From Klebsiella phage Magnus: a stretch of DNA of 64,000 nt. Below the pieces are notes generated by a model. That model ran no database searches. It saw nothing but the letters and a program-made list of their open reading frames with translations, and was not told the DNA's origin. Where the stretch lies: the sequence record NC_049462.1; one strand, given 5' to 3'. The position numbers and the translations under genes are program-made. Below, piece after piece: positions 2,022 through 20,088 of the stretch; the stretch's first letter is position 1, and every line of letters begins with the position of its first letter.

Positions 2022-2507
2022 TTGAAAAGGTGGGAATATTTTATGGAAGTTAACAACACTCAATATCAAACGATGTCTATAGAGGACATCATGGCTGAAC
2101 TGGATCCACTGATTACGGTTGATCCGGCTGATCGTAATTTAGATCAGATTTCGTTGAAGATCGGGCGTTCCTTTATGACAGTGCAGCGGCATTACATTCG
2201 TGAAGGGCGTTATCTGGAATACCTGACTGGGCGGTTTAAACAGATTGATGTTTATCTGCGCAGGTATTATGCCGGGGAATTACCTGCGCAATCGTATCGC
2301 GAACGCCCTCTCAACAACAAACCACTGAAAACTGATCTGCCTCTATGGGTTCAGGCCGACGATATGTATATCGAGATGTCCGGGCTTCTACAAGAACAGA
2401 AAGCGAAGGTGAAATTCATCGAAAGTTGTTTGGATCGTTTGAACAAGCTGGGTTATGAAGTGAAGAATGCCATAGATTGGAGAAAATACATGGATGGCGG
2501 TTACTAA
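2022..2507 (+). CDS. Hypothetical protein.
   Basis: ORF; its stop overlaps the next gene's start (TAATG). Confidence 0.4.
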   Translation: MKRWEYFMEVNNTQYQTMSIEDIMAELDPLITVDPADRNLDQISLKIGRSFMTVQRHYIREGRYLEYLTGRFKQIDVYLRRYYAGELPAQSYRERPLNNKPLKTDLPLWVQADDMYIEMSGLLQEQKAKVKFIESCLDRLNKLGYEVKNAIDWRKYMDGGY

Positions 2508-3253
2508 TGAGCCAACTCCAGGTACTCAAGAAGATCAACAATATTGAGGAACGTCAATATACATTTCAGCAGTACGAATTACCGTACAAGGAGCTGACTT
2601 GTGTAACGAACGAGAATGGACGCCATTACGTTTCCCCAACAGGGGTGAAGTTAACCTCTGTAACAACAATGTTGGGGCGTACCAGTGACCATACATGGTT
2701 GGATGCCTGGGTCGAAAGGCTTGGAGTTGAACAAGCAGCAATTGAAGCACAAAGATGCGCTGATAGGGGAGAGGCAGTGCATCTTGCTTGTGAATTATAT
2801 CTGAAGAATGCGCCGATGAAAGATGTTGTGGCCGCCGCCGGACAATATCTGTTCATGTTCATGCAATTGTTTCCCTATCTGAATCGCATGACAAAGATAT
2901 ATGCCCAGGAAATACCTCTATATAGCGAAGTATTGGGCTTGGCCGGGCGTGTGGATTTAATCGGGGTGTACAACGGAACCCCAGCAATTATCGACTTCAA
3001 GACTTCCAATACTCTGAAAACCAGGGACATGATAGAGGATTACAGCATACAATTGTGTCTGTATTCAGTTATGTTTCAACAGATGTTTAATGTCAAAATC
3101 GAGCGTCTCATCAACATTATATCCAATGAGAATGGTTTACTGCCGACAGTAATAGAATTCCACAGAAAAGATATTCTCCCAAAAATGTTCGAGCGTGTCC
3201 GTTTATATCACCGTATGGACAAGGAACAGAATGGAATCTGGGCAGACCGCTAA
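2507..3253 (+). CDS. PD-(D/E)XK-type nuclease-like protein.
   Basis: D...D/E-x-K arrangement: GRVDLIGV ... IIDFKTSN. Start is coupled to the upstream stop. Confidence 0.45.
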   Translation: MSQLQVLKKINNIEERQYTFQQYELPYKELTCVTNENGRHYVSPTGVKLTSVTTMLGRTSDHTWLDAWVERLGVEQAAIEAQRCADRGEAVHLACELYLKNAPMKDVVAAAGQYLFMFMQLFPYLNRMTKIYAQEIPLYSEVLGLAGRVDLIGVYNGTPAIIDFKTSNTLKTRDMIEDYSIQLCLYSVMFQQMFNVKIERLINIISNENGLLPTVIEFHRKDILPKMFERVRLYHRMDKEQNGIWADR

Positions 3254-3280
3254 ATACTCCATATAATTGGGAGGATTGGT

Positions 3281-4798
3281 ATGGCCGACATTTCTGTGAC
3301 CAAAGTGAACGAAGTCCGTATGCGTGTGCATGCTGAAGCAGGGATCTATGAAGAACTAAATGATTACTTCAAATTTGAAGATCCCAACTTTCTGCCTAAT
3401 CCTTTCAGCAAATGGGATGGCGTCGTCCGCCTATTTACCAAATCTTCCGGCCTGATTGACATCGGTCTTCTGTTTGAACTCTTCAAATTTTGTAAGACCA
3501 ACGGTTATTCACTTGACGTGGATCCTGCATTGAAATATATCCAGGACATCCCTGACAATGAAATCCATGATTTCTGTAATAATTTGAAAACACAAATTCG
3601 CACAGAATCTGGGGAATACATTGATGCTGAAGTTCGGCAGTATCAATTCGATTCCATCGCCACTGCCATGAGGCAATCTCGCTGCGTCCTCGAGCTGGCT
3701 ACAAGTGCCGGTAAATCCTTTATTCTTTATGTGATGGCCCGTTACTACAGGGAAAGGCGAGAAGCGCTCGAAAGTAATCTGAGGACGCTTATCGTTGTTC
3801 CTTCCGTACACCTTGTAAGACAATTGTACGAGAACTTCGAAGAATATAGCCATGGACAATCCTGGAACCCGTTCTACCAGGTACAAACCATATGCGAAGG
3901 TGCAACCCGCAATATTGATAAACCCATCACAATTTCCACATGGCAAGGCATACAAGACCAGCCAAAGGATTGGTTTCATCAGTTTGGCGATATCATTGTT
4001 GATGAAGTGCATACTTCAAAGTCAGATAAACTTTCTTATATCCTCAACAACTGCATAAATGCTGACCAACGCCTCGGGGTTACTGGTACTTTGGCGAACA
4101 CTAAAGTTGCTGGTCTGCAGGTGGTATCCCACTTTGGTGCCTATCACAAGATCATCACGGCTCGAGAACTGATAAGTATGGGATATGCGGCTGATATTAA
4201 AATCCGGATGATAGAATTGAAACACAGATTGGCCGACGCTATTGATATGCATGGTGCCGATTATCAGAAAGAAATGGAATATTTGATATCGAACGAAGTT
4301 AGAAACCGGCTTATCGCCAAGATGGCTTTAACATTAAAGGGTAACGTCGCCATCATGTTCGAACGTATTGATGCCCACATGATGATCGTGTATGACATCC
4401 TCAAAGAAATAAAGCCAAACGTATTTGTCATCAACGGGGAGGTCAAATCAGCAGACCGCATGCAAATACAAAGGGCGATAGAAGAAGGTGAGGATATTAC
4501 TCTGTTGGCATCTTATGGAACGATGCAACAAGGGGTTTCTATAAAGAAACTTCATCATCTGGTATTGGCACACCCAAGCAAATCATATATCCGCGTCATC
4601 CAGACTCTTGGACGATTGATGCGTCAGCACTCAACAAAAGACGTGGCACTCATATGGGATTTGGTAGACAATTTGAGTTATAATGGGAGTTACAATCATG
4701 CGTTGCGTCACTCTCACGAGCGATACAAATTCTATTTGACAGAGCGCCACCCTGTAGAATTGAAAAGAGTGGCGCTGGAAGATTATTTGGGGTCTTGA
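3281..4798 (+). CDS. uvsW: UvsW-like SF2 DNA/RNA-DNA helicase.
   Basis: N-terminus NPFSKWDGVVRLF resembles T4 UvsW NPRFRYGNWDGRIRLL. Walker A TSAGKS, DEVH box (IIVDEVH). Length 505 aa, close to T4 UvsW. Confidence 0.85.
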   Translation: MADISVTKVNEVRMRVHAEAGIYEELNDYFKFEDPNFLPNPFSKWDGVVRLFTKSSGLIDIGLLFELFKFCKTNGYSLDVDPALKYIQDIPDNEIHDFCNNLKTQIRTESGEYIDAEVRQYQFDSIATAMRQSRCVLELATSAGKSFILYVMARYYRERREALESNLRTLIVVPSVHLVRQLYENFEEYSHGQSWNPFYQVQTICEGATRNIDKPITISTWQGIQDQPKDWFHQFGDIIVDEVHTSKSDKLSYILNNCINADQRLGVTGTLANTKVAGLQVVSHFGAYHKIITARELISMGYAADIKIRMIELKHRLADAIDMHGADYQKEMEYLISNEVRNRLIAKMALTLKGNVAIMFERIDAHMMIVYDILKEIKPNVFVINGEVKSADRMQIQRAIEEGEDITLLASYGTMQQGVSIKKLHHLVLAHPSKSYIRVIQTLGRLMRQHSTKDVALIWDLVDNLSYNGSYNHALRHSHERYKFYLTERHPVELKRVALEDYLGS

Positions 4799-5166
4799 TC
4801 CACATAGGCGGGCGTTGGCTCGCCTTCTTCACTGTCGTCAACCAAACCCAGGAATGCGTCGATACTATCACAACAACGTTGTAACAGTTCCGGCTTGATG
4901 GTTTTGTTGATGACCGCCTGATTTTTGTTGATGAGAGGGAACACTTTTAATTCGCCGAAGTTGCTCATATTGACGATCGCAACATAAAGCCCTGGCTTGG
5001 TATTACCCGACAGGAATGAGAATGGGACTTCCTTGGCAGTGTCTGATTTCGTTTCATCAACTAAAACTTTCAAAAGAGTAGTGCTTGTTGTCTCACTACC
5101 CAATTTCCGGCTTGCCATATCTCCGTGGCTGTACCCTACGGCATAGATTGCTACTAGTTGTTTCAT
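4783..5166 (-). CDS. Hypothetical protein.
   Basis: ORF on the minus strand, convergent with uvsW. No motifs recognised. Confidence 0.3.
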   Translation of the reverse strand: MKQLVAIYAVGYSHGDMASRKLGSETTSTTLLKVLVDETKSDTAKEVPFSFLSGNTKPGLYVAIVNMSNFGELKVFPLINKNQAVINKTIKPELLQRCCDSIDAFLGLVDDSEEGEPTPAYVDQDPK

Positions 5167-5489
5167 GCTATTCGTCTCGTGTTGTTTGCATCCTTATATA
5201 ATAGTCTCATGTTATGTTTAGACCAATTTAAAATAATTTGCCTTTCGGATTAAAAAGTCCTTTCTTGTTGAACAAATCCGTCGTACTATACGAGTTGTGA
5301 GCTTTGCGAGCAACGAGTATTAGGGGTTTACGAGCGAAGCGAGTTGATTAATATAAATTAATAGATTAATCTATTTCGTTAATAATTTGCGCGCGAAGAG
5401 ATTTAACACTTGTTCTATATCCCCAAATGGGCGATACTAAATTGCGTCAACAACATGACTTGACTTCACTATATCTTGAGGATACATAA

Positions 5490-8177: not shown

Positions 8178-9062
8178 ATGACAACTACATTTAGTAAGAA
8201 CGTGAGACTGAATCTGGCTTTTGGTAATGCTAAAGGGGACGTAACCGCCCCCGACTTTAGCAAAATTCGCAATCAGGCGAAACTCGTGTTGGAAGAAACC
8301 AAAGAACTCCTGGAAGCGGCGTATTTTGACCATGACGTTGTTGTCAATTTCCAGGCCACTCCAAAACCGAGTAACAACGAAATATATTCTGACCCCAATG
8401 CCAAAGTGAATGCTATGCGCCTCATTATGGATTCCCAGGGCGATATCACAACGGTCAACGACGGCGTGGCTCACATCGCCGGTTTCGACGGCAACGAATG
8501 CTTGCAGCGTGTCTACACGTCCAATATGAGCAAATTCATCCGTTCTGAAGATGAAGTCGGTCCGGCGCTGGATTATTACTATTCTCGCGGTTTCCCGGAA
8601 GGCCAGCTGCGTGTTGAAGGTGAATTCCCTCAGGCATGCATCAAGGTCAATGAGACCGTGATGTGGAACGGCAAAGAATATCCGGCGAATAAATTCCTGA
8701 AGAACATGGCCGTCTTCCAGGAACCGGATTTCAGTGATATGCTGACGAGTACTCCATTACAACAGGTGAAAGCCATCATCGCCAGCAGCGTTGTTGAACC
8801 GGGTAAAGCGTACATCGATAAAGAGAATGGTGTCGCTTACTTCCACATCAACGACCTCCGCCAGTTCCTGGAAACTTCTGCGGGGTTTGGTACGACTCAA
8901 GAACTGGCTAATGTAGATGGCCAGACTGAGAGTTATGTCCCGGTCTACCATGTTAGTGATGATTCGTATCCGGAACTGAACGGTTATTGGGCTGCTAACG
9001 TTCGTGTGTTCGTCTACTCCCCATACAATCCGGAAGTCACGCAGCTGACCCGTATCGATTAA
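8178..9062 (+). CDS. Hypothetical protein.
   Basis: 294 aa with a good SD. The N-part KLVLEETKELLEA weakly recalls the EExxE motif of all-alpha NTP pyrophosphohydrolases (MazG / T4 gp56-like). This is not established. Confidence 0.45.
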   Translation: MTTTFSKNVRLNLAFGNAKGDVTAPDFSKIRNQAKLVLEETKELLEAAYFDHDVVVNFQATPKPSNNEIYSDPNAKVNAMRLIMDSQGDITTVNDGVAHIAGFDGNECLQRVYTSNMSKFIRSEDEVGPALDYYYSRGFPEGQLRVEGEFPQACIKVNETVMWNGKEYPANKFLKNMAVFQEPDFSDMLTSTPLQQVKAIIASSVVEPGKAYIDKENGVAYFHINDLRQFLETSAGFGTTQELANVDGQTESYVPVYHVSDDSYPELNGYWAANVRVFVYSPYNPEVTQLTRID

Positions 9063-9133: not shown

Positions 9134-10363
9134 ATGAAAGATAAACCGTCAGACATCCAATATTGCGGTGTCCGTGAAGATAAAATCAAAACAGCTGATC
9201 CTGTCCTCAGCCCTTTCCATCGCAAGCTGTCCTATGATTGGATGAATGAACGTTACAAAATCCACGTAAGAAAGGACGTCCAGAGTCTTCCTGCTCCCTG
9301 GACGGAAAATGAGATACTACGGCAGGTCAAGTTTTGTAACGTCCGGAGAGAGCACGACAGGCAGTCTCAGCACCTCATCCGGAATATCGTTGATAATAAG
9401 AACCTGACTCTGGCGGACAAGATGTTCAACTGCCTTCTGTTCCGTATGTTCAATATGTGGGATCCCATCCAGCATGTTCTAGAAGGTCCGGTCTCCATCA
9501 ATGATTTCCGTAATATCAATTTGGACCGAACTCGTGAACGATTTGCGGACTTTGACAAAAAAGGCGGCGTGACGTTCACTAATGCTTTCAACACAGGCGG
9601 CTTGAAGCAATGCCTGGCTTTTCCTGAACTGGCCGTGACTGGTAAGCCAGCCAGCCCCAGCAAAATGATGGTGAAAGTATTTGAGAAAGAAGGGCCGATG
9701 AAGTTTTATGTCGGGGAAATGAAATACAAAGATGCCAAGACTCTGGCCGAAGCAAATCCGGAAACAGTTGTGATCGAAGGCTGGGAACCGCATATGGGAA
9801 TGCGTGTTGTCCGATTCCTGAAAGCGTTTGTTACCCATAATCCTCATTTCTTCCATGCGTTGTTGGGGTTCAATTCACCACTATCTGTTTATGAAGAACT
9901 GCTTAACAAAGTTGAAGGCCTCGGTCCATTCTTGGCATATCAGATTTGGGTTGACTTCACATACAATCCGGATTATCCGTTCAGTGAAAACCATTTCACT
10001 ATCGCCGGGCCGGGGTGCCGCGCCGGGATTGATCTGTTGTTCCTGGACAAAGATGGTATGACCCACGAAGAGTGTATCTTCTGGCTCCGTGATAACCAGG
10101 ATCAGGTCTACGGGCAATATGGTTATGTTCGTGAACAATTCTGGTCGGCTGAAGCACCGGAAGATCAATGCATGAACGTCATGCAGCTGGAAAATATGTT
10201 CTGTGAACTGAGCAAATATACCCGTTGTGTCGAGGCTGTCATGCGTGGTGAGAAGCCTCGTGGTAAGGTTGGATATGACGGAAGCGGCGATTATAAAAAG
10301 CGTTGCGACGAAGTTGTTCTCAACCGTGGTTCTGTCAATCTTCTGGAAAGGATGAAGAAATGA
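9134..10363 (+). CDS. Hypothetical protein (409 aa).
   Basis: Strong SD AGAGGA. No motif I can assign; conserved-looking block GPFLAYQIWVDFTYNPDYPF. Confidence 0.5.
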   Translation: MKDKPSDIQYCGVREDKIKTADPVLSPFHRKLSYDWMNERYKIHVRKDVQSLPAPWTENEILRQVKFCNVRREHDRQSQHLIRNIVDNKNLTLADKMFNCLLFRMFNMWDPIQHVLEGPVSINDFRNINLDRTRERFADFDKKGGVTFTNAFNTGGLKQCLAFPELAVTGKPASPSKMMVKVFEKEGPMKFYVGEMKYKDAKTLAEANPETVVIEGWEPHMGMRVVRFLKAFVTHNPHFFHALLGFNSPLSVYEELLNKVEGLGPFLAYQIWVDFTYNPDYPFSENHFTIAGPGCRAGIDLLFLDKDGMTHEECIFWLRDNQDQVYGQYGYVREQFWSAEAPEDQCMNVMQLENMFCELSKYTRCVEAVMRGEKPRGKVGYDGSGDYKKRCDEVVLNRGSVNLLERMKK

Positions 10364-10700: not shown

Positions 10701-12731
10701 ATGTCAGATTTTAAACCCTTCGCAGTTGCTGTAAAGAATCAAATCACCGCGATGTCCAGCAATGGCCTGTACATGACTTCGGTTGACAAAGACGCCCTGT
10801 GGGATCTGTATCTGTCGTCTTTCCCGGAAGGCACCAACAACATCTACCGTGAGCGCACCGAGCACGATTGCACCTGCTGCAAGCAATTCATCCGTAATAT
10901 CGGCGGCGTCGTATCGATTGACGCTGATCTGAACCTGGTCACTGTGTGGGACAGTGTTAATCTGGGCAACGAATATGACGTGGTGGCAGCGGCGCTGGCC
11001 AAGTATGTCAAGCAGCACAATATCGTGGGCGTATACTTCAACGATTCGTCTAAAGTCGGCGTTGAAAGCAACCATGAAATGGGTGAAAACGGTAAAGTCC
11101 GCACCTACAACCATTTCCACGCAACGCTGGAAGGCAAATTTGTTCTCCGCGCCGATACTATCGCATCCAGAAAAGGTGAAATCTGGCAGTCGATTGAAGT
11201 CTTTGAGCGCGGGTTGCGTGAACTGACTCTGGAATCGGCTGAGATCGTACTGGAACTCATCGACCAGAACTCCCTGTATCGTGGCGAAGAGCATCGTGCT
11301 GCTATCCAGAGCTTTATCCAAAGCAAAAATGAATACGCACAAATTCCGTCGACTCTGAAACAACTCTGGGCTTGGCGTACTGGCTGGATGTCGAATAACC
11401 ATAAGCCGTTCGGCATCCGAAATAACGTCATCGGCACGTTATTAATCGATCTGTCTGGTGGCGTGGATCTGGAAAAGGCGGTTAAGTCATTTGAAACCAA
11501 AGTGGCACCGACCAACTACCGCCGCCCGACTGCTCTGGTGACTAAGGGTATGATCGAGCAAGCGCAGAAAAAAGTTGCTGAACTCGGCCTGACCGACTCG
11601 CTCGGACGCCGCTTTGCCACCTACGACGACCTGACCATCAACAACGTTCTGTTCGCTGATTTGGCTGCGCAGAAGGCGATGGATCCGTTTGCCCAGCTGG
11701 CTCAGGAAGTGAAAGTGTCGGAGAAATCCCTGGGTAAAATCGAAGAGATCAGTGCCGACGACTTTGTCAAAAACGTACTGCCGAAGGCGCATTCTATGGA
11801 AGTCCTCTTTGAGGGTTCCCATACTGGTAATCTGATGTCGTTGGTGGCACCGCAAACTGCAGGCGCACCTGGCCTCTTCAAATGGAATAACAACTTCTCC
11901 TGGTCATATAATGGTGAAGTTGCCGATTCCATCAAAGAGCGCGTGAAGGCCGCTGGCGGTAATGTGGATTCGTTCCTGCGTGTGTCTCTGGCCTGGTTCA
12001 ACAACGATGACCTGGACCTGCACATGTATACACCGCAGCGTGAACATATCTACTTCCACACTCGCGAATCCCGTTCTACGGGCGCCAAGCTGGACGTTGA
12101 TATGAACGGCATGGATGGTATCAACGCAGAACGCAAGCCCGTTGAGAACATCTTCTTCAGCGATGAAAGCAAGCTGAAAGACGGTGTGTATCAGTTCGTG
12201 GTGGACAATTATAACCAACGTGAAACTATCGACACCGGGTTTATCATCGAAGTCGAATACAAAGGTGATCTGAAGCGCTATTCCTGCGAAAAAGGTCTGA
12301 AGCAGAAACAGCAGTTCGCGGTAGTTGAACTTCATGTCAAAAATGGCAAAGTCGTTGACGTTCAGACTCCACTGACGCCGACTGCTGGCGTTGAGACTGA
12401 AGTATGGGGCATCCGTACACAGAACTTCCAGAAAGTGCAGCTGGTTCTGAACTCACCGAACCATTGGGATGGTGAACAGACAGGCAACCGCCACTTGTTC
12501 TTTATCCTGGAAGGCTGTGTGAACCCGGTCGGAACCCGCGGATTCTACAACGAATATCTGAAGCCGGAACTGGCACCGCATGGTAAGGTTTTTGAAATGC
12601 TTGGCGCTAAAATGAAAACAGCACCAAGTGATAACCAACTGAGCGGCCTGGGCTTCTCTTCCACTCAGCGCAACCATGTTCTGGTGAAGGTAAGTGGCTC
12701 GTTCAACCGTGTAGTCAAAGTCGTCTTTTAA
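10701..12731 (+). CDS. Hypothetical protein (676 aa).
   Basis: Strong SD and high-GC codon usage like the core genes. N-terminal Cys cluster HDCTCCKQF. No family recognised. Confidence 0.5.
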   Translation: MSDFKPFAVAVKNQITAMSSNGLYMTSVDKDALWDLYLSSFPEGTNNIYRERTEHDCTCCKQFIRNIGGVVSIDADLNLVTVWDSVNLGNEYDVVAAALAKYVKQHNIVGVYFNDSSKVGVESNHEMGENGKVRTYNHFHATLEGKFVLRADTIASRKGEIWQSIEVFERGLRELTLESAEIVLELIDQNSLYRGEEHRAAIQSFIQSKNEYAQIPSTLKQLWAWRTGWMSNNHKPFGIRNNVIGTLLIDLSGGVDLEKAVKSFETKVAPTNYRRPTALVTKGMIEQAQKKVAELGLTDSLGRRFATYDDLTINNVLFADLAAQKAMDPFAQLAQEVKVSEKSLGKIEEISADDFVKNVLPKAHSMEVLFEGSHTGNLMSLVAPQTAGAPGLFKWNNNFSWSYNGEVADSIKERVKAAGGNVDSFLRVSLAWFNNDDLDLHMYTPQREHIYFHTRESRSTGAKLDVDMNGMDGINAERKPVENIFFSDESKLKDGVYQFVVDNYNQRETIDTGFIIEVEYKGDLKRYSCEKGLKQKQQFAVVELHVKNGKVVDVQTPLTPTAGVETEVWGIRTQNFQKVQLVLNSPNHWDGEQTGNRHLFFILEGCVNPVGTRGFYNEYLKPELAPHGKVFEMLGAKMKTAPSDNQLSGLGFSSTQRNHVLVKVSGSFNRVVKVVF

Positions 12732-12766: not shown

Positions 12767-13138
12767 ATGTTTGATAAAGCAACCCGTCTGAAACTGCGTT
12801 TCAACTCCAACAAAGGCATGCTGTCCGTTGAGCAGGTGTGGGATCTGAGCCTGACTGCTCTGAACGAAATGGCGAAAGGTCTGAACCGCGAACTGAAAGC
12901 TGCTGCGGTTGACGATGAAGATTTCATCGGTAACAATACCGCTGTTGATTCTCAGCTGCAACTGCGCTTTGACATCGTCAAAAGCATCATCAGCACCAAG
13001 CTGAAAGAGCGCGACGACACCCTGTCCGCTGCAGAAAAACGTGAGCACAACCAGGCCATCCTGGAACTCATCAAGAAGAAACAGCAGGAAGAGCTGGCGG
13101 GCAAATCTGTTGAAGAACTGCAAGCCCTGCTGAAATAA
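12767..13138 (+). CDS. Hypothetical protein (123 aa). Its last ~11 codons are duplicated downstream of nadV.
   Basis: SD AGAGGA. C-terminus ...SVEELQALLK. Confidence 0.5.
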   Translation: MFDKATRLKLRFNSNKGMLSVEQVWDLSLTALNEMAKGLNRELKAAAVDDEDFIGNNTAVDSQLQLRFDIVKSIISTKLKERDDTLSAAEKREHNQAILELIKKKQQEELAGKSVEELQALLK

Positions 13139-13182
13139 ATCCGTCAACTCCGGTATTAACAACCCCGCCCTGTGCGGGGTTT
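13102..13182 (+). repeat. Direct repeat copy 1: 33-nt core plus terminator hairpin.
   Basis: caaatCtgttgaagaactgcaagccctgctgaa (13102-13134), then 26 nt, then aaccccgccCtgtgcggggttt (13161-13182). Confidence 0.8.
13161..13182 (+). terminator. Rho-independent terminator.
   Basis: aaccccgcc-ctgt-gcggggtt followed by T-rich sequence. Confidence 0.7.
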
Positions 13183-13236
13183 CAATTTGTGTATCGCAGT
13201 ATAATACATATGTAAACTAAACTATGGGGCTACGTT

Positions 13237-14091
13237 ATGTTTCGTTTGAGATTGAACGACCAAGATGTGTTCTACAAACACTTCACCTTTCCGGGCGGTG
13301 AGGAACATATCAAGATTCAAAAGGCGGGTATCCCTGTTGGTAAAATCCAGACAGTGGTAATTGACGCCCACATTAAATCGTCAGCAGACTTCATTGAGCT
13401 GGCACTGTTGGTGAATGCCGTGCGCGGCCTGGGTAATGTCGACCGACTGACAACATTTCATGCTTATATCCCTTATTTTCCATATGCCCGTCAGGATCGT
13501 CATTGCGACTTTGGTGAACCTCTTTCGGTGAAGTGGGCAGCAGAGTTCATCAATAGTATGAACTTTGACCGTGTGGCTATCAAAGACCCTCACAGCCATG
13601 TTGTGTCTTCTTTGATCAACAACGTCCATGTTGTCCCGCAAGATTACATTGCTCGCCAGTACCTGGGATGGTTCATCCGTGGAAACAACGCTGTGTTAGT
13701 AGCCCCTGACGGTGGCGCGGCGAAGAAGACTGAAACCCTCAGCCTATCGCTGGATGGCGTTCCTGTTGTCTACGGACATAAGAACCGCGACACCAAGACA
13801 GGCGAGATCATTGGGGTGAGTATTACAAACCCTGAACTGATCAAAGACCGCTATCTGGTTGTGGTAGATGATATCTGTGACGGCGGGCGAACGTTTGTTG
13901 AGCTGGGCAAAGAGCTTCAGAAGCACGAGCCTAAGCACATGACCCTCTTCGTTACCCACGGCATTTTCAGCAAAGGCCTCTCTGTGTTCGACGGGATCTA
14001 CGATGCTGTGTATGCCGACACTGTCTGGTGGGAGAACATCACTGCCGACGGTCTTCCATTCAAAACTGAAAATACAGGACGTGTAAAATGA
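13237..14091 (+). CDS. prs: Ribose-phosphate pyrophosphokinase family protein (Prs-like; alternatively an ADPR-PP synthetase of NARP1 type).
   Basis: PRPP synthetase motifs: FPYARQDRH (PP-binding loop), LVVVDDICDGGRTF (PRPP-binding site). 284 aa. Confidence 0.75.
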   Translation: MFRLRLNDQDVFYKHFTFPGGEEHIKIQKAGIPVGKIQTVVIDAHIKSSADFIELALLVNAVRGLGNVDRLTTFHAYIPYFPYARQDRHCDFGEPLSVKWAAEFINSMNFDRVAIKDPHSHVVSSLINNVHVVPQDYIARQYLGWFIRGNNAVLVAPDGGAAKKTETLSLSLDGVPVVYGHKNRDTKTGEIIGVSITNPELIKDRYLVVVDDICDGGRTFVELGKELQKHEPKHMTLFVTHGIFSKGLSVFDGIYDAVYADTVWWENITADGLPFKTENTGRVK

Positions 14092-15740
14092 GCATGCGCC
14101 ACTTAGATCCAATCCATGCAATCGACTTCTACAAATCAGGGCACATCTATCAATTTCCTGAAGGTAGCGAGCTGGTGTTCTCCAACGGAACTCCACGCTC
14201 CAACAAACTGTTCAACTCCCACCTGCCGAAGAACGGCGTGGTGGTCTGGGGTATCCAGGGCTTCATGACCTGGTTCCACGAACTGTTTGATGAAGCGTTC
14301 TTCCAGCGCCCAAAGGCCAAGGTGCTGAAGAAGTATGCCCGTCGAATGAACAAAGTTCTCGGACCAGGCCGCGTTGGGACAGAGCATATCGAAGCCCTGC
14401 ACGACCTCGGCTACCTGCCTATCGAAGTCCGCGCTCTACCCGAAGGCACCATGTGCCCGTATGGTGTTCCAGTATATGTGATGTTCAACACCTTGCCGGA
14501 GTTCTACTGGCTGACCAACTATCTGGAGACGGTGTTCAGCTCTGAGATCTGGAAGCCGATGACGAACGCAACCATTGCCCTGCATTACAAGGCGCTGATG
14601 GTGAAAGCCGCTATCGCTACAGGCGTGTCGCCGGACCATTGGTTCATCGACTACCAAGGCCACGACTTCTCCTTCCGTGGTATGAGCGGGTGGCATGACG
14701 CGGCGTCTTCCGGTTCTGGCCATCTGGTGTTCTTCAAAGGCACCGACACCAACCCTGCCCTGGACTTCGTTGAAGAGTATTATGGCGCGGATATCGATGA
14801 AGACTATGTCGTTGCTGGCTCTGTTGCAGCCACCGAACACGCCGTGATGTGCATGGGCACGAAAGATGGCGAATTCGAAACCTTCCGCCGCCTGGTACAG
14901 GACGTGTATCCTGATGGCATCGTCAGTATCGTTTCTGATGCATGGGATTACTGGCAGGTCATCGACGACTATCTGCCGCGCCTCAAAGATATCATCATGG
15001 CGCGTAATGGCAAAGTTGTGATCCGCCCCGACTCTGGTGACCCAGTGCATATCGTCGGTGGTTATCGCGTCGAAGAATTTTGCAATGAGCAGGATTTTTA
15101 CGATAACGACCCACGTGAAGAAACTGAAGTTATCTATCTCAAAGAAGAAAACAGATACCATATTCTGGAACAATATCAGTTTAATCAGATCGGGGAAGAG
15201 ATTTCTCGTTCAGAAGCGGTCGGTTCTATCCAGCGCCTATGGGAGATCTTTGGCGGAACCCAGACCGAAACGGGCCACTTCCTGTTGGATGAGCATATCG
15301 GCCTGATCTACGGTGATTCCATTACCCTGAGCCGTGAAGATCAGATCTTTGCTCGTCTGGCTGAACGTAATTTCGCTTCCATCAACGTAGTGTTCGGTAT
15401 CGGTTCCTATACTTACCAGATGAACACCCGTGATAGTACCGGGACGGCGGTGAAAGCAACGGCTGGGAAGGTCAACGGTGAATTCCGTGAGATTTTCAAA
15501 GAACCGAAGACTGACAAAGGTGGTACGAAGAAATCTGCGCGTGGTTTCCTTAAAGTCATTAAAGACTCTCAGGGTAAACTAGTGTTGGTTGACGGTATCA
15601 CCTTTGATCAGGTGCAAGACGCCGACAACCAGCACCAGCTGGTGTATCGTGATGGCAAGTTCTTCAACACCCAAACTCTGGAAGAAGCGCGTTTTCGTGC
15701 CGCTCCTCTGGTGGAAGAATTGGCATCACAAATATGTTGA
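14088..15740 (+). CDS. nadV: Nicotinamide phosphoribosyltransferase family protein (NadV/NAMPT-like; alternatively a Namat).
   Basis: NAMPT-family features: N-terminus DFYKSGH, GTEHIEALHDLGYLP, RPDSGDP, YGDSIT. Start overlaps the prs stop (ATGA). 550 aa. Confidence 0.75.
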   Translation: MSMRHLDPIHAIDFYKSGHIYQFPEGSELVFSNGTPRSNKLFNSHLPKNGVVVWGIQGFMTWFHELFDEAFFQRPKAKVLKKYARRMNKVLGPGRVGTEHIEALHDLGYLPIEVRALPEGTMCPYGVPVYVMFNTLPEFYWLTNYLETVFSSEIWKPMTNATIALHYKALMVKAAIATGVSPDHWFIDYQGHDFSFRGMSGWHDAASSGSGHLVFFKGTDTNPALDFVEEYYGADIDEDYVVAGSVAATEHAVMCMGTKDGEFETFRRLVQDVYPDGIVSIVSDAWDYWQVIDDYLPRLKDIIMARNGKVVIRPDSGDPVHIVGGYRVEEFCNEQDFYDNDPREETEVIYLKEENRYHILEQYQFNQIGEEISRSEAVGSIQRLWEIFGGTQTETGHFLLDEHIGLIYGDSITLSREDQIFARLAERNFASINVVFGIGSYTYQMNTRDSTGTAVKATAGKVNGEFREIFKEPKTDKGGTKKSARGFLKVIKDSQGKLVLVDGITFDQVQDADNQHQLVYRDGKFFNTQTLEEARFRAAPLVEELASQIC

Positions 15741-15810
15741 AGAACTGCAAGCCCTGCTGAATAGCCAGCTGCCTTCGGCGCGATAATGAACCCCGCCATG
15801 TGCGGGGTTT
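15729..15810 (+). repeat. Direct repeat copy 2: 33-nt core (1 mismatch) plus terminator hairpin (1 mismatch).
   Basis: caaatAtgttgaagaactgcaagccctgctgaa (15729-15761), then 27 nt, then aaccccgccAtgtgcggggttt (15789-15810). Confidence 0.8.
15789..15810 (+). terminator. Rho-independent terminator after nadV.
   Basis: Hairpin aaccccgccatgtgcggggttt + attttag. Confidence 0.7.
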
Positions 15811-15826
15811 ATTTTAGGTGAAGAAT

Positions 15827-16204
15827 ATGAAACCAGTTATTTGTGATTATTGTGGGAAGGCAGCGATACTCGTTAGTGGCGACGCAATATACCCCCACCG
15901 CCCGGATCTTAACCACCTTCAATTCTGGGCTTGTGAGCCTTGCGATGCAAGAGTCGGTTGCCATCCTAACACAGGGGGCATTCCCCTCGGGAGCCTGGCT
16001 AATGCCGAATTGCGCAAAGCGAGAAACAAGGCGCATAACTGTTTTGATCCTCTTTGGAGAGAAGGTGGTATGAGCCGTGGACAGGCATACCAATGGCTGT
16101 CTGAACAACTCGGTCTACCGAAGTCCAAATGTCATATAGGACAATTCGATATCCACACGTGCACAAAAGTCGTTGGCTTGTGCAGCCTTTATTGGAGTAT
16201 GTAA
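15827..16204 (+). CDS. Zinc-finger domain protein (DUF3268-like).
   Basis: CDYCG...CEPCDARVGCHPNTGGIPLGSLA...HNCFDPLW. Resembles the zinc-finger-containing domain family common in phages and prophages. AT-richer than neighbouring genes. Confidence 0.55.
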   Translation: MKPVICDYCGKAAILVSGDAIYPHRPDLNHLQFWACEPCDARVGCHPNTGGIPLGSLANAELRKARNKAHNCFDPLWREGGMSRGQAYQWLSEQLGLPKSKCHIGQFDIHTCTKVVGLCSLYWSM

Positions 16205-16957
16205 ATGTCTAACAGAACTGGTATTAAACTCAATCCAGAAATCCTTAAATCCCATATCGCGGAAGTTATCTATGAAGACCGCGAAGTGGGAGGGCATCGT
16301 GTTATCACTTGCCATTTGAAAATGGATAACGGATTTGTCGTTTGGGGAAAGGATAGCTCAACATCTATTGACCCCAAAAATTTCGATGAAGAATTGGGCA
16401 AGAAATTGGCATACGATAAGACTTTCTCTCAATTGTGGGAACTGGAAGCATATCGGGCTATGGTTGTCCAAGATTTCATTGGTAAGACAACTGAAGAACC
16501 GTTTATAAAACTTGAAGATTATATTGAAGAAAGTAAGACAATGCAAGTATCCGGTTGGGACTATCGGAATGGTGTAGCCACCGCATATTCTATTAGATCA
16601 ATTAAAAGAAGTAAATTTGGATTGTTGGATTACATCAGCATTTGTCTTTACAAAACTGATAATAAAAAACATGATGATATCAATAATTCGAAAGAAATAC
16701 AGAAAGCAAAGGATTTCATCAGATCTTATATGAATCACACTGAAATTAATAGCCAGTTTGTAATTCATATCGCAAAACTTTGTTGGGCTGCTCGGTCAGC
16801 GGTTGTGGACACTACACCTTCTTGGGAAGATTCTAAAGAAACAGATCGCCAAGATATGTGCGAAACGGTTAAAAAATTACTGTTATCCCCCAGCGATTAT
16901 CAACCAAAAGATAATTTGTTGAAATTGTTTTGGGCGATTGTGTCCCAATTCCGATAA
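16205..16957 (+). CDS. Hypothetical protein. The N-terminal ~110 aa resemble the phage Gp49/Gp66-like family.
   Basis: ITCHLKMDNGFVVWGKDSSTSIDPKNFDEELGKKLAY pattern. AT-rich; C-terminal half unrelated. Confidence 0.4.
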   Translation: MSNRTGIKLNPEILKSHIAEVIYEDREVGGHRVITCHLKMDNGFVVWGKDSSTSIDPKNFDEELGKKLAYDKTFSQLWELEAYRAMVVQDFIGKTTEEPFIKLEDYIEESKTMQVSGWDYRNGVATAYSIRSIKRSKFGLLDYISICLYKTDNKKHDDINNSKEIQKAKDFIRSYMNHTEINSQFVIHIAKLCWAARSAVVDTTPSWEDSKETDRQDMCETVKKLLLSPSDYQPKDNLLKLFWAIVSQFR

Positions 16958-17521: not shown

Positions 17522-19720
17522 ATGATTGAATCATTAGAATTTAAGAATGCCACACAGACGGTTGCTCCTTCCAATCACGTCATCGTCGTTGACATTTCTT
17601 ATTCCATGTGCTATGCGCTGCCGAAACTGCGCCAGCACCTGAAAGAAAACCTGCCCTCTCTGGTTAAGCCGGAAGACACCATCAGTATTCTGTACTTCTC
17701 TTCTCGTGGCGACTTCGGTACTGTGTTCGCTGGGCGCCAGGTCAGAAACGCATCTGACCTGAGTGAGCTGGGCAAACTGATCGATCGCTTCCTGCAACCG
17801 ACGGGCTGCACCGGATTTGTTGAGCCGCTCAAGCTGGCTATCGAAACCGCCAACGATCTGAAAAAGTCCGGCGTCATCAATTCCCTGGTGTTCATGACCG
17901 ACGGCTATGACAACTGCTGGCGTTCCAGTGAAATCCTGGCCGTTGCTGAGCAGCTGCCAAAAGCATACGACAACATCACCCTGATCGAATACGGCTGGAA
18001 CTGCAACCGCGAACTGCTGCAGAAAATGGCTGAGTGCTCTGGTGCAACCCATGTATTCGCCGAAGGCCAGGAAGAATATCAGACCGAACTGGAAACAGCG
18101 ATGGTTTCTGTCGCTCCGCGCGTTCGCGTTGATTTCAGCGTCATCTATTCCTATGCCGTTTATATCGAAAACGGGATTCCGACCATCCTGGCCGCCCAGT
18201 CTGATGAAGACCATCCTATCAATTACGTCAACATCCCTGAGAGCGTCTCTAAGCTGTGGGTTGTTGATCCTGATATGATCGACCAACTGGATAACCTGGC
18301 GGACGTTGAAGCGGCATATGTGCTGGCTCTCTTTGGCGTGCATACTATGGATGCCGACCTGGTGTGGGCCGCGCTGAAAAAGACTGGCGATGTGCGCTTC
18401 ATTAAACAGTACACCAACTGCTTCACCAAGCAGGATTATTCCAACATCAAAACTGACATTACAGCAGCGATTGTAGACCCGGCGCTGCGCGGTGTGGACG
18501 GTATCGATTACAATCTGGTGCCGCCGGAAGACGCAACTACTGTTGTTGATGTTCTGACTTACCTGGCGGGAGCAGACGCACAACTGGTTGTTGACCATCC
18601 CCTGTTCTCTTACAAGCGGATCGGTCGCGGTACGGTACAAAAAGCCGACGATACCGAAGACAAGCTGGCGGCAGAAATTGCCGAAGCCAAATCTAAAGAA
18701 GAGCGTAAAGCGCTGGCCCTGAAACTGGCTGAACACGAAGACTGGACTCCTGTGTTTGAGCCAGTGAAAGGCGCGGGCGTTCCCATCAGCAATCTGGTTT
18801 ACAACTCCGCCCGCCCGAACATCAGTCTGCAGACTGTGCAAAACGGGACCGTCATCATTCCGAAGTTCGCCCAAAAGAAATACGATCTGCCGGAATCTAT
18901 TGACACATGGCAGTGGAAGAACTACACCATCGTCAAAGACGGTATCATCCATATGAAGACCCTTCCTGTGGTCTGCTCGGCTGAAACCGTATCTGAACTG
19001 GTTAGCAAAGGCGTTGAAGTTTACGGCGGGCCGGAAGTGTTCATCGTAAATCTGGGCAGCGTTCCTCTGGTTAACCGCGCGATGGTTAAGAACATCAGCG
19101 CCGCGCAGTTCTTTGCTGACCATGTCCGTCTGGAATCCCTGAAAGCCAAGCAGAAGGTTCTCAAATACTTCCGTGACGAACTGGTTGGGAAAGGTAATGC
19201 CGTGGGCCTGGCGGGCAAATACGGTGCCGAAGCGGCTGAGTTTCTGTCTGCGAATGGCATCCGCGATTACGGCTTCTCTCCGAAGACCGCTTCGGTTGAG
19301 TCTACTGATTTCTACATGAGCCGCGAACTCAATGTGAAGATCAAAGGCGCTTCCTCTCTGCCGTCAATTGCCGCCGTTCTGAAGAAACAGGCAGACAACA
19401 AAAAGCTGAACGCAGCTGATCAGCTGATCGCTAATGCGCTGGCAGAATACAACGCCTTTGTCAAATCTCCGGCGGTGACTGCAGTCCCGGAAGCAACGCA
19501 GGCCAAGATCATTGAATCTTGGATCAGTGACGCTGCCAAGGCCGCAATCACCCAAGTGCGTGAGCTGAACAAGACCCTGTCCAAATCCCTGTATGCCATC
19601 GTTGCTGGCCATGGCTGGTTCACCGACCTGGATCTGGAAGAGTCCACCATGGAAGTGGAAGTTGACGGTGTGAAATACACCGTCAGCGCAGTGCTGGAAG
19701 AGAAAGAGATCAAAATCTAA
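17522..19720 (+). CDS. von Willebrand factor A (vWA) domain protein, 732 aa.
   Basis: MIDAS residues: VVDISYSM (DxSxS) ... PTGCTG ... FMTDGYDN. High-GC codon usage. Long C-terminal region of unknown function. Confidence 0.65.
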   Translation: MIESLEFKNATQTVAPSNHVIVVDISYSMCYALPKLRQHLKENLPSLVKPEDTISILYFSSRGDFGTVFAGRQVRNASDLSELGKLIDRFLQPTGCTGFVEPLKLAIETANDLKKSGVINSLVFMTDGYDNCWRSSEILAVAEQLPKAYDNITLIEYGWNCNRELLQKMAECSGATHVFAEGQEEYQTELETAMVSVAPRVRVDFSVIYSYAVYIENGIPTILAAQSDEDHPINYVNIPESVSKLWVVDPDMIDQLDNLADVEAAYVLALFGVHTMDADLVWAALKKTGDVRFIKQYTNCFTKQDYSNIKTDITAAIVDPALRGVDGIDYNLVPPEDATTVVDVLTYLAGADAQLVVDHPLFSYKRIGRGTVQKADDTEDKLAAEIAEAKSKEERKALALKLAEHEDWTPVFEPVKGAGVPISNLVYNSARPNISLQTVQNGTVIIPKFAQKKYDLPESIDTWQWKNYTIVKDGIIHMKTLPVVCSAETVSELVSKGVEVYGGPEVFIVNLGSVPLVNRAMVKNISAAQFFADHVRLESLKAKQKVLKYFRDELVGKGNAVGLAGKYGAEAAEFLSANGIRDYGFSPKTASVESTDFYMSRELNVKIKGASSLPSIAAVLKKQADNKKLNAADQLIANALAEYNAFVKSPAVTAVPEATQAKIIESWISDAAKAAITQVRELNKTLSKSLYAIVAGHGWFTDLDLEESTMEVEVDGVKYTVSAVLEEKEIKI

Positions 19721-19764: not shown

Positions 19765-20088
19765 ATGTCTAAGAATGTGTCTTATATCGATGTCATGCGC
19801 TTCCTTGTCCAGTATGCAAGCGACAATCTGAATATGGAACTGTGGCGTGAGAAGAAACACTCCGTAACAATACAATCCGCGATTGAAAAAATCGAAGACC
19901 AGCTGGATACCCTGGCTCCTCTGCGCGTCAAAGAACATCTGGGTGGCGATGAACTTGACGCGATAGAAATCATCATGGAACTGGAAGAAGAATATGATGT
20001 AGAGATCACGGATCATTGGATCGGGTCTCACCAAGACGACCCAACCCTGGGTGAATTGGCTGAACACGTGGTTCACCTATTAAAATAA
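19765..20088 (+). CDS. Acyl carrier protein-like protein with the phosphopantetheinyl-Ser replaced by Glu.
   Basis: HLGGDELDAIEIIMELEEEYDVEI aligns with E. coli ACP [24 protein letters not shown]. The DSL serine position is E. Confidence 0.65.
   Translation: MSKNVSYIDVMRFLVQYASDNLNMELWREKKHSVTIQSAIEKIEDQLDTLAPLRVKEHLGGDELDAIEIIMELEEEYDVEITDHWIGSHQDDPTLGELAEHVVHLLK

Follow-up and report, generated by a model that had tools for sequence, protein, structure and literature searches.

Phages restore NAD+ during infection by several described NAD+ reconstitution pathways (NARP), of which NARP1 is defined by the adjacency of two genes, one for the ADP-ribose pyrophosphate (ADPR-PP) synthetase Adps and one for the nicotinamide ADP-ribose transferase Namat, and has been counted 859 times in a phage data set (Osterman et al.). 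Here, we examine a pair of overlapping genes in a 64,000-nucleotide stretch of DNA from Klebsiella phage Magnus (sequence record NC_049462.1; the whole stretch is called the window below). A first-pass annotation of this DNA had described the two open reading frames (ORFs), here ORF A and ORF B, as a Prs-family and a NAMPT-family gene that overlap by ATGA and form an NAD+ reconstitution module, possibly of the NARP1 type. Both ORFs exist exactly as described, and by their sequences the pair very probably represents a functional, minimal two-gene NARP1 operon.

Experiments have established the chemistry of NARP1 with the enzymes of SPbetaL1 and ICP1 and its phenotype with Bas63, FADO and SPbetaL1; that Adps forms ADPR-PP and AMP from ADP-ribose (ADPR) and ATP, and makes no phosphoribosyl pyrophosphate, is known for the SPbetaL1 and ICP1 Adps orthologues only (ICP1: PMC13586617). 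The NARP1 of Bas63 (JohannRWettstein; genes 79-80), for which there is genetic evidence of action against SIR2-HerA (Osterman et al., 2024), shares with the window the order of a Prs-like followed by a Nampt-like gene, an identical pyrophosphate (PP) loop (DDICDGGRTFVE), a selectivity-clamp loop of the type TPRS[DN]K.FNS.L, an insertion in Namat at the same site after RPDSGDPVHIV.GY, and an Enterobacteriaceae host. The two systems differ in that they are 33% (Adps) and 46% (Namat) identical, that the Bas63 genes lie 45 nt apart whereas those of the window overlap, that the insertion measures ~98 aa in Bas63 and 50 aa in the window, and that Trp43 and Tyr494 of Bas63 correspond to Leu41 and Met445. 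The Namat of the Bacillus phage SPbetaL1 gives the best match of ORF B to a solved structure (E 7e-136, ~50% identity), and this system has in common with the window the NAD+-contacting catalytic residues, the catalytic Lys of Adps and R306 of Namat (Arg313 in the window), but it differs by a Gram-positive PP loop (DDLSSFGGTF), by a Namat of 491 aa that lacks the insertion and by the clamp residues Arg40 and Tyr396. The Adps of the Vibrio phage ICP1, 33% identical to ORF A, shares with it F18, R87, H121, D161, K185, D212, D213 and D216 (ICP1 numbering), a DDICDG-type loop and the lack of alpha11-alpha12; it differs at PP-loop positions 218-219, which are Gly-Arg in ORF A rather than Ala-Ala, and at Phe92 and Phe223, which are Cys90 and Glu222 in ORF A.

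The other described pathways are more distant. NARP2 (KVP40-type, NadV plus NatV) and NARP3 (NadR-like plus PnuC-like) have the restoration of NAD+ during infection in common with the window, and NARP2 likewise uses a Nampt-family enzyme; unlike them, the window has yielded no nicotinamide mononucleotide (NMN) adenylyltransferase (Nmnat) or NadR domain, its ORF B falls outside the NadV clade, and a Prs-like partner is specific to NARP1. The core Adps-Namat pair also forms part of two extended types, NARP1-AP, with the Macro-domain phosphatase Adpp, and RyDEP-containing NARP1, whereas the window comes without a third gene.

The module was identified correctly, but it belongs to a known system that has been catalogued before. 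Over the 2.7-kb region, identity amounts to 98.2% with Klebsiella phage UPM 2146 and to 97-98% with Madison, Menlow, 0507-KN2-1 and others (Madison, Menlow, 0507-KN2-1 and UPM 2146 belonging to the Ackermannviridae, genus Taipeivirus, as does the phage of the window), and among the matches listed the Kuttervirus (Salmonella) and Agtrevirus (Shigella) relatives reach ~88-89%. Supplementary Table 1 of Osterman et al. lists proteins of 0507-KN2-1, Menlow, UPM 2146 and cp16 under 'Adps homologs' with the entry 'Namat within 10 genes: Yes', and ORF A differs from these by one to a few residues. A 2024 review of the Ackermannviridae, citing Osterman et al., suggested that the NAMPT and RPPK genes serve to evade NAD+ depletion. 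Published work thus already covers the pathway, the enzymes with their structures and the occurrence of NARP1 in the Taipeivirus-type phage group, and the modest additions made here are the substitutions in the Namat selectivity clamp, the variable insertion, the repeat-flanked relocation of the pair and also its loss in Dickeya phages.

Family and clade assignment of the two proteins

The reading as NARP1 is based here on family and clade membership, on catalytic and diagnostic residues, on the anatomy of the operon and on the finding of no Nmnat or NadR domain. In profile searches both ORFs score against their families far beyond chance: ORF A matches Pribosyltran (PF00156, 4e-09), Pribosyltran_N (PF13793, 8e-07) and phrog_619 (6e-91), with matches to Prs structures in the PDB at E-values as low as 1e-17, and ORF B matches NAPRTase (PF04095, 3e-32), NF006629 (3e-142, over its cutoff) and phrog_448 (4e-194). 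The motifs FPYARQDRH and VVDDICDGGRTF, which the earlier reading had quoted, are both found in the sequence. The ATG of namat (14088-14090) overlaps the TGA of adps (14089-14091), and UPM 2146, May, allotria and MK-13 have the same coupling junction.

The family match of ORF A is that of a divergent Prs homologue. Against TIGR01251 (ribP_PPkin) it reaches 1e-30 and 106.5 bits, under the curated cutoff of 113, and against the other NCBIfam Prs models it scores ~50-95 bits where cutoffs lie at ~300-540, which places it under the cutoff of every Prs model. Adps forms a phage clade inside the Prs family whose members nearly always stand beside Namat, with a Namat homologue no more than 10 genes away in 97% of the clade (Osterman et al.), and in the window the Namat homologue follows ORF A immediately. 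In an alignment and tree of 20 sequences, comprising ORF A, four validated Adps enzymes (Bas63, SPbetaL1, FADO and ICP1), nine Adps-type proteins from Table S1 of Osterman et al. and six canonical Prs enzymes including that of E. coli, ORF A groups with the 13 other Adps-type proteins. The split between 14 Adps-type and 6 Prs sequences appears in 89% of 500 neighbour-joining bootstraps, counted on bipartitions in a small sample with a distance method; this figure is possibly an underestimate, since one distance formula gave NaN for the most divergent pairs.

The structures of ICP1 Adps (apo, substrate and product) supply sequence criteria for Adps, among them a remodelled donor site and PP loop (ICP1 C215-S220) that is common to Adps and differs from the DD[MI]IDTGGT of Prs (PMC13586617). 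In ORF A the PP loop (D211-F220) reads DDICDGGRTF, the same as in Bas63 Adps, as compared with DDMIDTGGTL in the canonical Prs of E. coli. Lys182 of ORF A aligns with the catalytic K185 of ICP1 and K162 of SPbetaL1, the catalytic beta-hairpin is of the Adps type (K.RD.KTGEI), and F18, R85, H119, D158, D211, D212 and D215, the counterparts of ICP1 F18, R87, H121, D161, D212, D213 and D216, are all kept. Furthermore, ORF A is without the C-terminal alpha11-alpha12 filament and regulatory module of Prs: at 284 aa it stops ~30 residues early, and the motif ..LLAEAIRRI..SVS.LF, present in all six Prs sequences, is missing. Inspection of the ribose-5-phosphate loop and alignment with characterised Adps enzymes, both of which had been proposed as checks in the first-pass annotation, thus reveal a rewired loop with the Adps donor-loop signature and a place in the Adps clade, and support the assignment of ORF A as Adps-type rather than canonical Prs.

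For ORF B, the alignment with Namat and NadV proteins that had likewise been proposed gives a concordant picture. Its top PDB matches are 9W5X and 9W5W (E 7e-136), the structures of SPbetaL1 Namat with nicotinamide and with NAD+ bound, as compared with 3e-51 for human NAMPT. Sequence identity amounts to 46-50% with the Namats of Bas63, ICP1, SPbetaL1 and the Staphylococcus phage JD007, as against 27-29% with NadV from RB16, phiAS4 and CcrSwift, and tblastn identities across 2045 phage records separate into the same two groups. The catalytic core is kept (F194, R197, D220, H251 in ATEH, R313, D315 and G409-D410), and in SPbetaL1 Namat it comprises F189, R192, D215, the catalytic His, R306, D308 and G360-D361. 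These alignments support the placement of ORF B in the Namat clade and not in the NadV clade.

A further claim of the first-pass annotation was that no Nmnat is visible in the window, and it holds. In a Pfam scan (E<=0.01) of 143 ORFs of 110-560 aa, drawn from the window and the remainder of the genome of UPM 2146, the nearest complete genome, none matched CTP_transf_like (PF01467), while all three positive controls did, namely NadD and NadR of E. coli and the Nmnat of CcrSwift. As the last of these reached no better than E 1e-3, a very divergent Nmnat could have escaped the scan. The rest of the genome had been named as a place to search, and the remainder of UPM 2146 likewise shows no Nmnat within the sensitivity of the hidden Markov models (HMMs); the annotation of its complete genome contains neither a cytidylyltransferase nor an Nmnat. 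A phmmer search with NadD, NadR, CcrSwift Nmnat and a phiAS4 'nucleotidyltransferase' against the six-frame window and UPM 2146 returned a best E of 0.2, in what is an insensitive search; it was discounted because the queries miss one another and the phiAS4 protein is unlike Nmnat. The same 143 ORFs contain no CTP_transf_like domain that could belong to a NadR-like NARP3 enzyme, PnuC not having been specifically looked for. In the two genes on each side of the pair, hmmscan found neither a Macro domain (PF14519, PF01661, PF20016) nor a RyR domain, the published work on these extended forms having used the more sensitive HHpred.

The weight that the earlier reading had placed on the missing Nmnat must nevertheless be reduced. 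Enterobacterial hosts carry NadR and PncC and can turn NMN into NAD+ themselves. The absence of an Nmnat, within the sensitivity of the HMMs, is therefore supportive but not decisive, and it is the evidence from clades and motifs that discriminates. Taken with the Adps clade and donor loop of ORF A and the Namat clade of ORF B, it supports the earlier preference for NARP1 over NadV/NatV-type salvage.

Predicted chemistry, donor selectivity and rival explanations

From the characterised orthologues of SPbetaL1, Bas63, FADO and ICP1 we infer both the chemistry and the counter-defence phenotype of the pair. NAD+-depleting defences such as SIR2-HerA, DSR1/2, type I Thoeris and SEFIR split NAD+ into ADP-ribose and nicotinamide. 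Adps (ORF A) would then transfer pyrophosphate from ATP to the terminal ribose of the ADP-ribose, yielding ADPR-PP, and on Namat (ORF B) nicotinamide would displace the pyrophosphate of ADPR-PP to give NAD+, without an NMN intermediate or an Nmnat. Klebsiella phages of the genus Taipeivirus, which are therapy candidates against carbapenem-resistant K. pneumoniae, carry this minimal NARP1 and by analogy should resist SIR2-HerA, DSR, type I Thoeris and SEFIR. As no Adpp Macro domain was found beside the pair by hmmscan, the phage is predicted to be sensitive to aRES-type defence, whose product is ADPR-1''-phosphate. Such predictions can help in the choice of phages against strains rich in defences, although they add no new biology.

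The donor selectivity of Namat has been traced to two elements. An extended selectivity-clamp loop (SCL, the beta1-beta2 loop) gives an adenine-stacking residue, either Arg40 or a Lys/Tyr followed by the stacking residue, and a selectivity-clamp helix (SCH) carries the signature GSX-phi-X-phi-X-phi-TRD with adenine-stacking residues at positions 3 and 7 that are 'most often' aromatic (PMC12774641). The SCL of ORF B (PRSNKLFNSHLPKNG) is long and Bas63-like, as opposed to the short loop of NadV, and contains Lys40, then Leu41 (14208-14210; Trp in Bas63), then Phe42. In the SCH, whose NadV counterpart is GGGLLQ.V.RD, position 3 is Tyr441 and position 7 is Met445 (15420-15422), usually Tyr or Phe in other Namats.

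Several points weigh against the reading as a NARP1 operon. ORF A is only 22-33% identical to the validated Adps enzymes, the tree that places it among them is a neighbour-joining tree of 20 taxa and not a maximum-likelihood one, and ICP1 Phe92 is replaced by Cys90, a position equally unconserved in Bas63 and SPbetaL1. In Namat, aromatic residues are missing from two of the three clamp positions for adenine stacking (Leu41 against Trp43 of Bas63, Met445 against Tyr396 of SPbetaL1). Since double clamp mutants of SPbetaL1 Namat show activity reduced 2.4- to 16.6-fold, selectivity for ADPR-PP might be weaker in ORF B or reached differently. The activities of the Ackermannviridae Adps and Namat are moreover predicted from orthologues, and because characterised Namat enzymes still convert phosphoribosyl pyrophosphate (PRPP) to NMN in vitro, an NMN side route through host NadR and PncC may exist.

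If this side route were the main one, the pair would serve ordinary NMN salvage, with ORF A making PRPP, ORF B making NMN, and host NadR or PncC/NadD/NadE completing NAD+. The Pfam, NCBIfam and GenBank labels, ribose-phosphate pyrophosphokinase and nicotinamide/nicotinate phosphoribosyltransferase, point in this direction, as do the in vitro formation of NMN from PRPP, the host enzymes, with which a phage Nmnat is not strictly required, and a clamp that with Leu41 and Met445 is less adenine-specific than in validated Namats. However, ORF A lies under the curated cutoff of every NCBIfam Prs model, its PP loop is rewired and the C-terminal module of Prs is gone, and SPbetaL1 Namat formed only NAD+ when ADPR-PP and PRPP were both supplied, all of which makes salvage a very improbable function of the pair. 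Even less credible, with hardly any probability left to it, is a pathway of the NARP2 or NARP3 type (Nampt plus Nmnat, or NadR-like plus PnuC) whose partner gene lies elsewhere in the genome: it has in its favour the shared Nampt-family fold only, and it is refuted, within the sensitivity of the HMMs, by the 27-29% identity of ORF B to NadV-type proteins, the lack of the GGGLLQ motif, the 0 of 143 ORFs with CTP_transf_like where the controls were detected, the annotation of UPM 2146, in which no cytidylyltransferase or Nmnat figures, and the finding of no phage with both NARP1 and NARP2 (Osterman et al.).

Another alternative accepts the descent from NARP1 and holds that the donors of the Ackermannviridae Namat include, to a meaningful extent, PRPP or some further ADPR derivative besides ADPR-PP. 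Every intact Ackermannviridae copy in the comparison, six in all from three genera (Taipeivirus, Kuttervirus and Agtrevirus), has Leu41 and Met445, the NadV of phiAS4 likewise has Met at the equivalent of SCH position 7, and in SPbetaL1 NAD+ synthesis is lost in double clamp mutants, whereas R40A/F392G, the double mutant tested for NMN synthesis, retains the latter. On the other hand, 10 of the 11 SCH positions and the long SCL are of the Namat type, the consensus is aromatic 'most often' and not always (PMC12774641), Phe42 directly after Leu41 could stack instead, and an Adps-type partner would be pointless unless ADPR-PP were the main substrate. We regard this relaxed specificity as unlikely and retain the two-gene NARP1 operon as the best reading of the pair.

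The Namat insertion and the history of the cassette

The alignment of ORF B with other Namats is interrupted by an acidic insertion directly after RPDSGDPVHIVGGY, the site at which Bas63 carries its own of ~98 aa, and absent from the Namats of SPbetaL1, ICP1 and Staphylococcus phage JD007. When the window is compared with May, allotria and MK-13, identity falls to 26-27% in the insertion, as against 96-100% for Namat residues 1-326 and ~96% for residues 373-550; a central motif of the insertion, TEV.....N.YH, is kept. The first 326 residues are 100% identical between the window (14088-15065) and Salmonella phage allotria (locus 2352-3329) at a synonymous divergence of ~0.44, and by this comparison purifying selection on the N-terminal part of Namat appears unusually strong for an accessory gene. 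The ratio of nonsynonymous to synonymous substitution rates (dN/dS) is 0.01-0.03 in the Namat core, a strong purifying selection that argues for a functional enzyme, and 0.15-0.45 in the insertion, where synonymous divergence between the window and allotria is ~4x that of the flanks. The insertion is therefore probably under relaxed constraint and subject to segment exchange. Positive selection was considered as well and rejected, as a dN/dS of 0.15-0.45 remains below 1 and diversifying selection is not demonstrated.

The aliphatic Leu41 and Met445, together with a fast-diverging acidic surface insertion of ~50 aa that seems to have been exchanged between lineages, invite a bolder proposal, to which we assign a low probability: the Ackermannviridae Namat may be a functional variant, either with altered donor selectivity (for PRPP or modified ADPR derivatives besides ADPR-PP) or with a contact surface in an arms race against some host factor by which Namat is sensed or inhibited, and, separately, the repeats described below may point to microhomology recombination as the means by which NARP1 travels, and disappears, as one self-contained unit from promoter to terminator.

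A direct repeat of ~87 nt flanks the cassette on both sides, and its second copy supplies the last Namat codons and the stop (..SQIC*). The hairpin motif within the repeat, T1, occurs twice in the 64 kb, as against 0.07 occurrences expected by chance, and its second copy is the predicted terminator of the cassette, where the Madison annotators also call one. The ~55 nt upstream of adps, which include TATAAT, are conserved in all four lineages, and they are shared by May, allotria and MK-13 although another gene lies upstream there. A sigma-70 scan of the region upstream of adps called no promoter, there being no -35 at 16-18 nt spacing, and TATAAT is hence only a putative -10. Since this upstream stretch moved together with the genes, the unit behaves as a self-contained, putative promoter-to-terminator cassette.

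In May, allotria and MK-13 the order is P-T1-DUF3268-gp49fam-Adps-Namat-T2, with a single repeat copy in May and MK-13 (gene P was not detected in the allotria locus), whereas in the window, UPM 2146 and Madison it is P-T1-Adps-Namat-[P relic + T1]-DUF3268-gp49fam; relative to the former, the cassette has changed places with the DUF3268-gp49fam pair. Because repeat copy 2 is collinear with the P-T1-DUF3268 junction of May, the order in the window is the derived one. The first new joint lies at the microhomology GGGGTTT/GGCGTTT followed by CAATTTG, and the second at CAAATCTG, common to the 3' end of Namat and gene P, where it turns the C-terminus ..SQI* into ..SQIC* with the gain of one codon (Cys550). 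Modular shuffling by repeated promoter and stem-loop elements is a feature of T4-type phages, to which the arrangement bears a resemblance only.

In the Dickeya Limestonevirus Ds23CZ (locus 3868-5317) adps is gone and all that is left of Namat is codons 441-549, with 93.6% identity to the window, in a decayed region that also holds fragments of the 676-aa protein, of DUF3268 and of the gp49-family gene. The coding sequence of this remnant is still annotated 'nicotinamide phosphoribosyltransferase'. Presence and absence of these genes within Agtrevirus had already been noted (2024 Ackermannviridae review). Loss in Dickeya Limestoneviruses and relocation in the lineage of the window are as would be expected of an accessory counter-defence module, and the term 'accessory island' used in the first-pass annotation is fair in the sense that the pair sits in a plastic part of the early/replication region, near thymidine-hypermodification genes, and that the cassette was moved or lost in related lineages.

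Feature coordinates and neighbouring genes

The features of the locus and its neighbours are collected in Table 1.

Table 1. Positions of the Adps-Namat cassette, its internal and flanking elements and neighbouring genes in the window
Feature	Position	Strand	Description
adps (ORF A)	13237-14091	+	284 aa; Prs-like, predicted ADP-ribose pyrophosphate synthetase
namat (ORF B)	14088-15740	+	550 aa; Nampt-like, predicted nicotinamide ADP-ribose transferase
Coupling junction	14076-14091	+	AGGA ribosome-binding site (14076-14079) within the adps 3' end plus ATGA stop/start overlap (14088-14091)
Selectivity-clamp loop (SCL), aa 36-52	14193-14243	+	PRSNKLFNSHLPKNGVV; long, Bas63-like; SCL definition from PMC12774641
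Selectivity-clamp helix motif (SCH), aa 439-449	15402-15434	+	GSYTYQMNTRD; consensus GSX.X.X.TRD from PMC12774641
Lineage-variable acidic 50-aa insertion, Namat aa 327-376	15066-15215	+	From alignment with other Namats
Direct repeat copy 1	13102-13188	+	Last 37 nt of gene P (12767-13138) plus hairpin T1 (13161-13182, AACCCCGCCCTGTGCGGGGTTT); terminator-like 5' cassette boundary
Conserved upstream region	13183-13236	+	CAATTTGTGTATCGCAGTATAAT; TATAAT 13200-13205; GGGG ribosome-binding site 13226-13229 (position per Madison annotation); putative promoter
Direct repeat copy 2	15729-15814	+	33-nt gene P 3'-end relic (97% to copy 1), diverged spacer, T1 copy 15789-15810 (95%), then TTTATTTT
MazG-like pyrophosphatase gene	8178-9062		Upstream of cassette
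5-hmdU DNA kinase (helical-domain protein)	9134-10363		Upstream of cassette
Conserved 676-aa unknown, phrog_1735	10701-12731		Upstream
Gene P, 123-aa unknown	12767-13138		Upstream of adps
DUF3268 zinc-finger protein	15818-16204		E 3e-40; GTG start
N4-gp49-family protein (Phage_gp49_66)	16205-16957		Downstream
Conserved 732-aa unknown, phrog_2426	17522-19720		Annotated 'putative vWa containing protein' in allotria
Acyl carrier protein (PP-binding, phrog_4154)	19765-20088		Few genes downstream of cassette

None of the neighbouring genes has a detectable link to NAD or ADPR. The 676-aa protein and gene P gave no hmmscan match, and the 676-aa and 732-aa proteins have neither a Pfam match nor a PDB sequence match. 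By family, the flanking genes of the pair are phrog_2018, DUF3268 and the N4-gp49-family protein, and an unknown protein of 118 aa is listed downstream of the cassette between the N4-gp49-family and 732-aa proteins. The DUF3268 ORF is annotated in UPM 2146 and May and is left unannotated in Madison. Thymidine-hypermodification genes are typical of ViI-like phages; the set found here comprises the MazG-like and 5-hmdU kinase genes, together with HMUD2, HMUDK_HMUD1 and ADDT matches among the ORFs of the window and UPM 2146.

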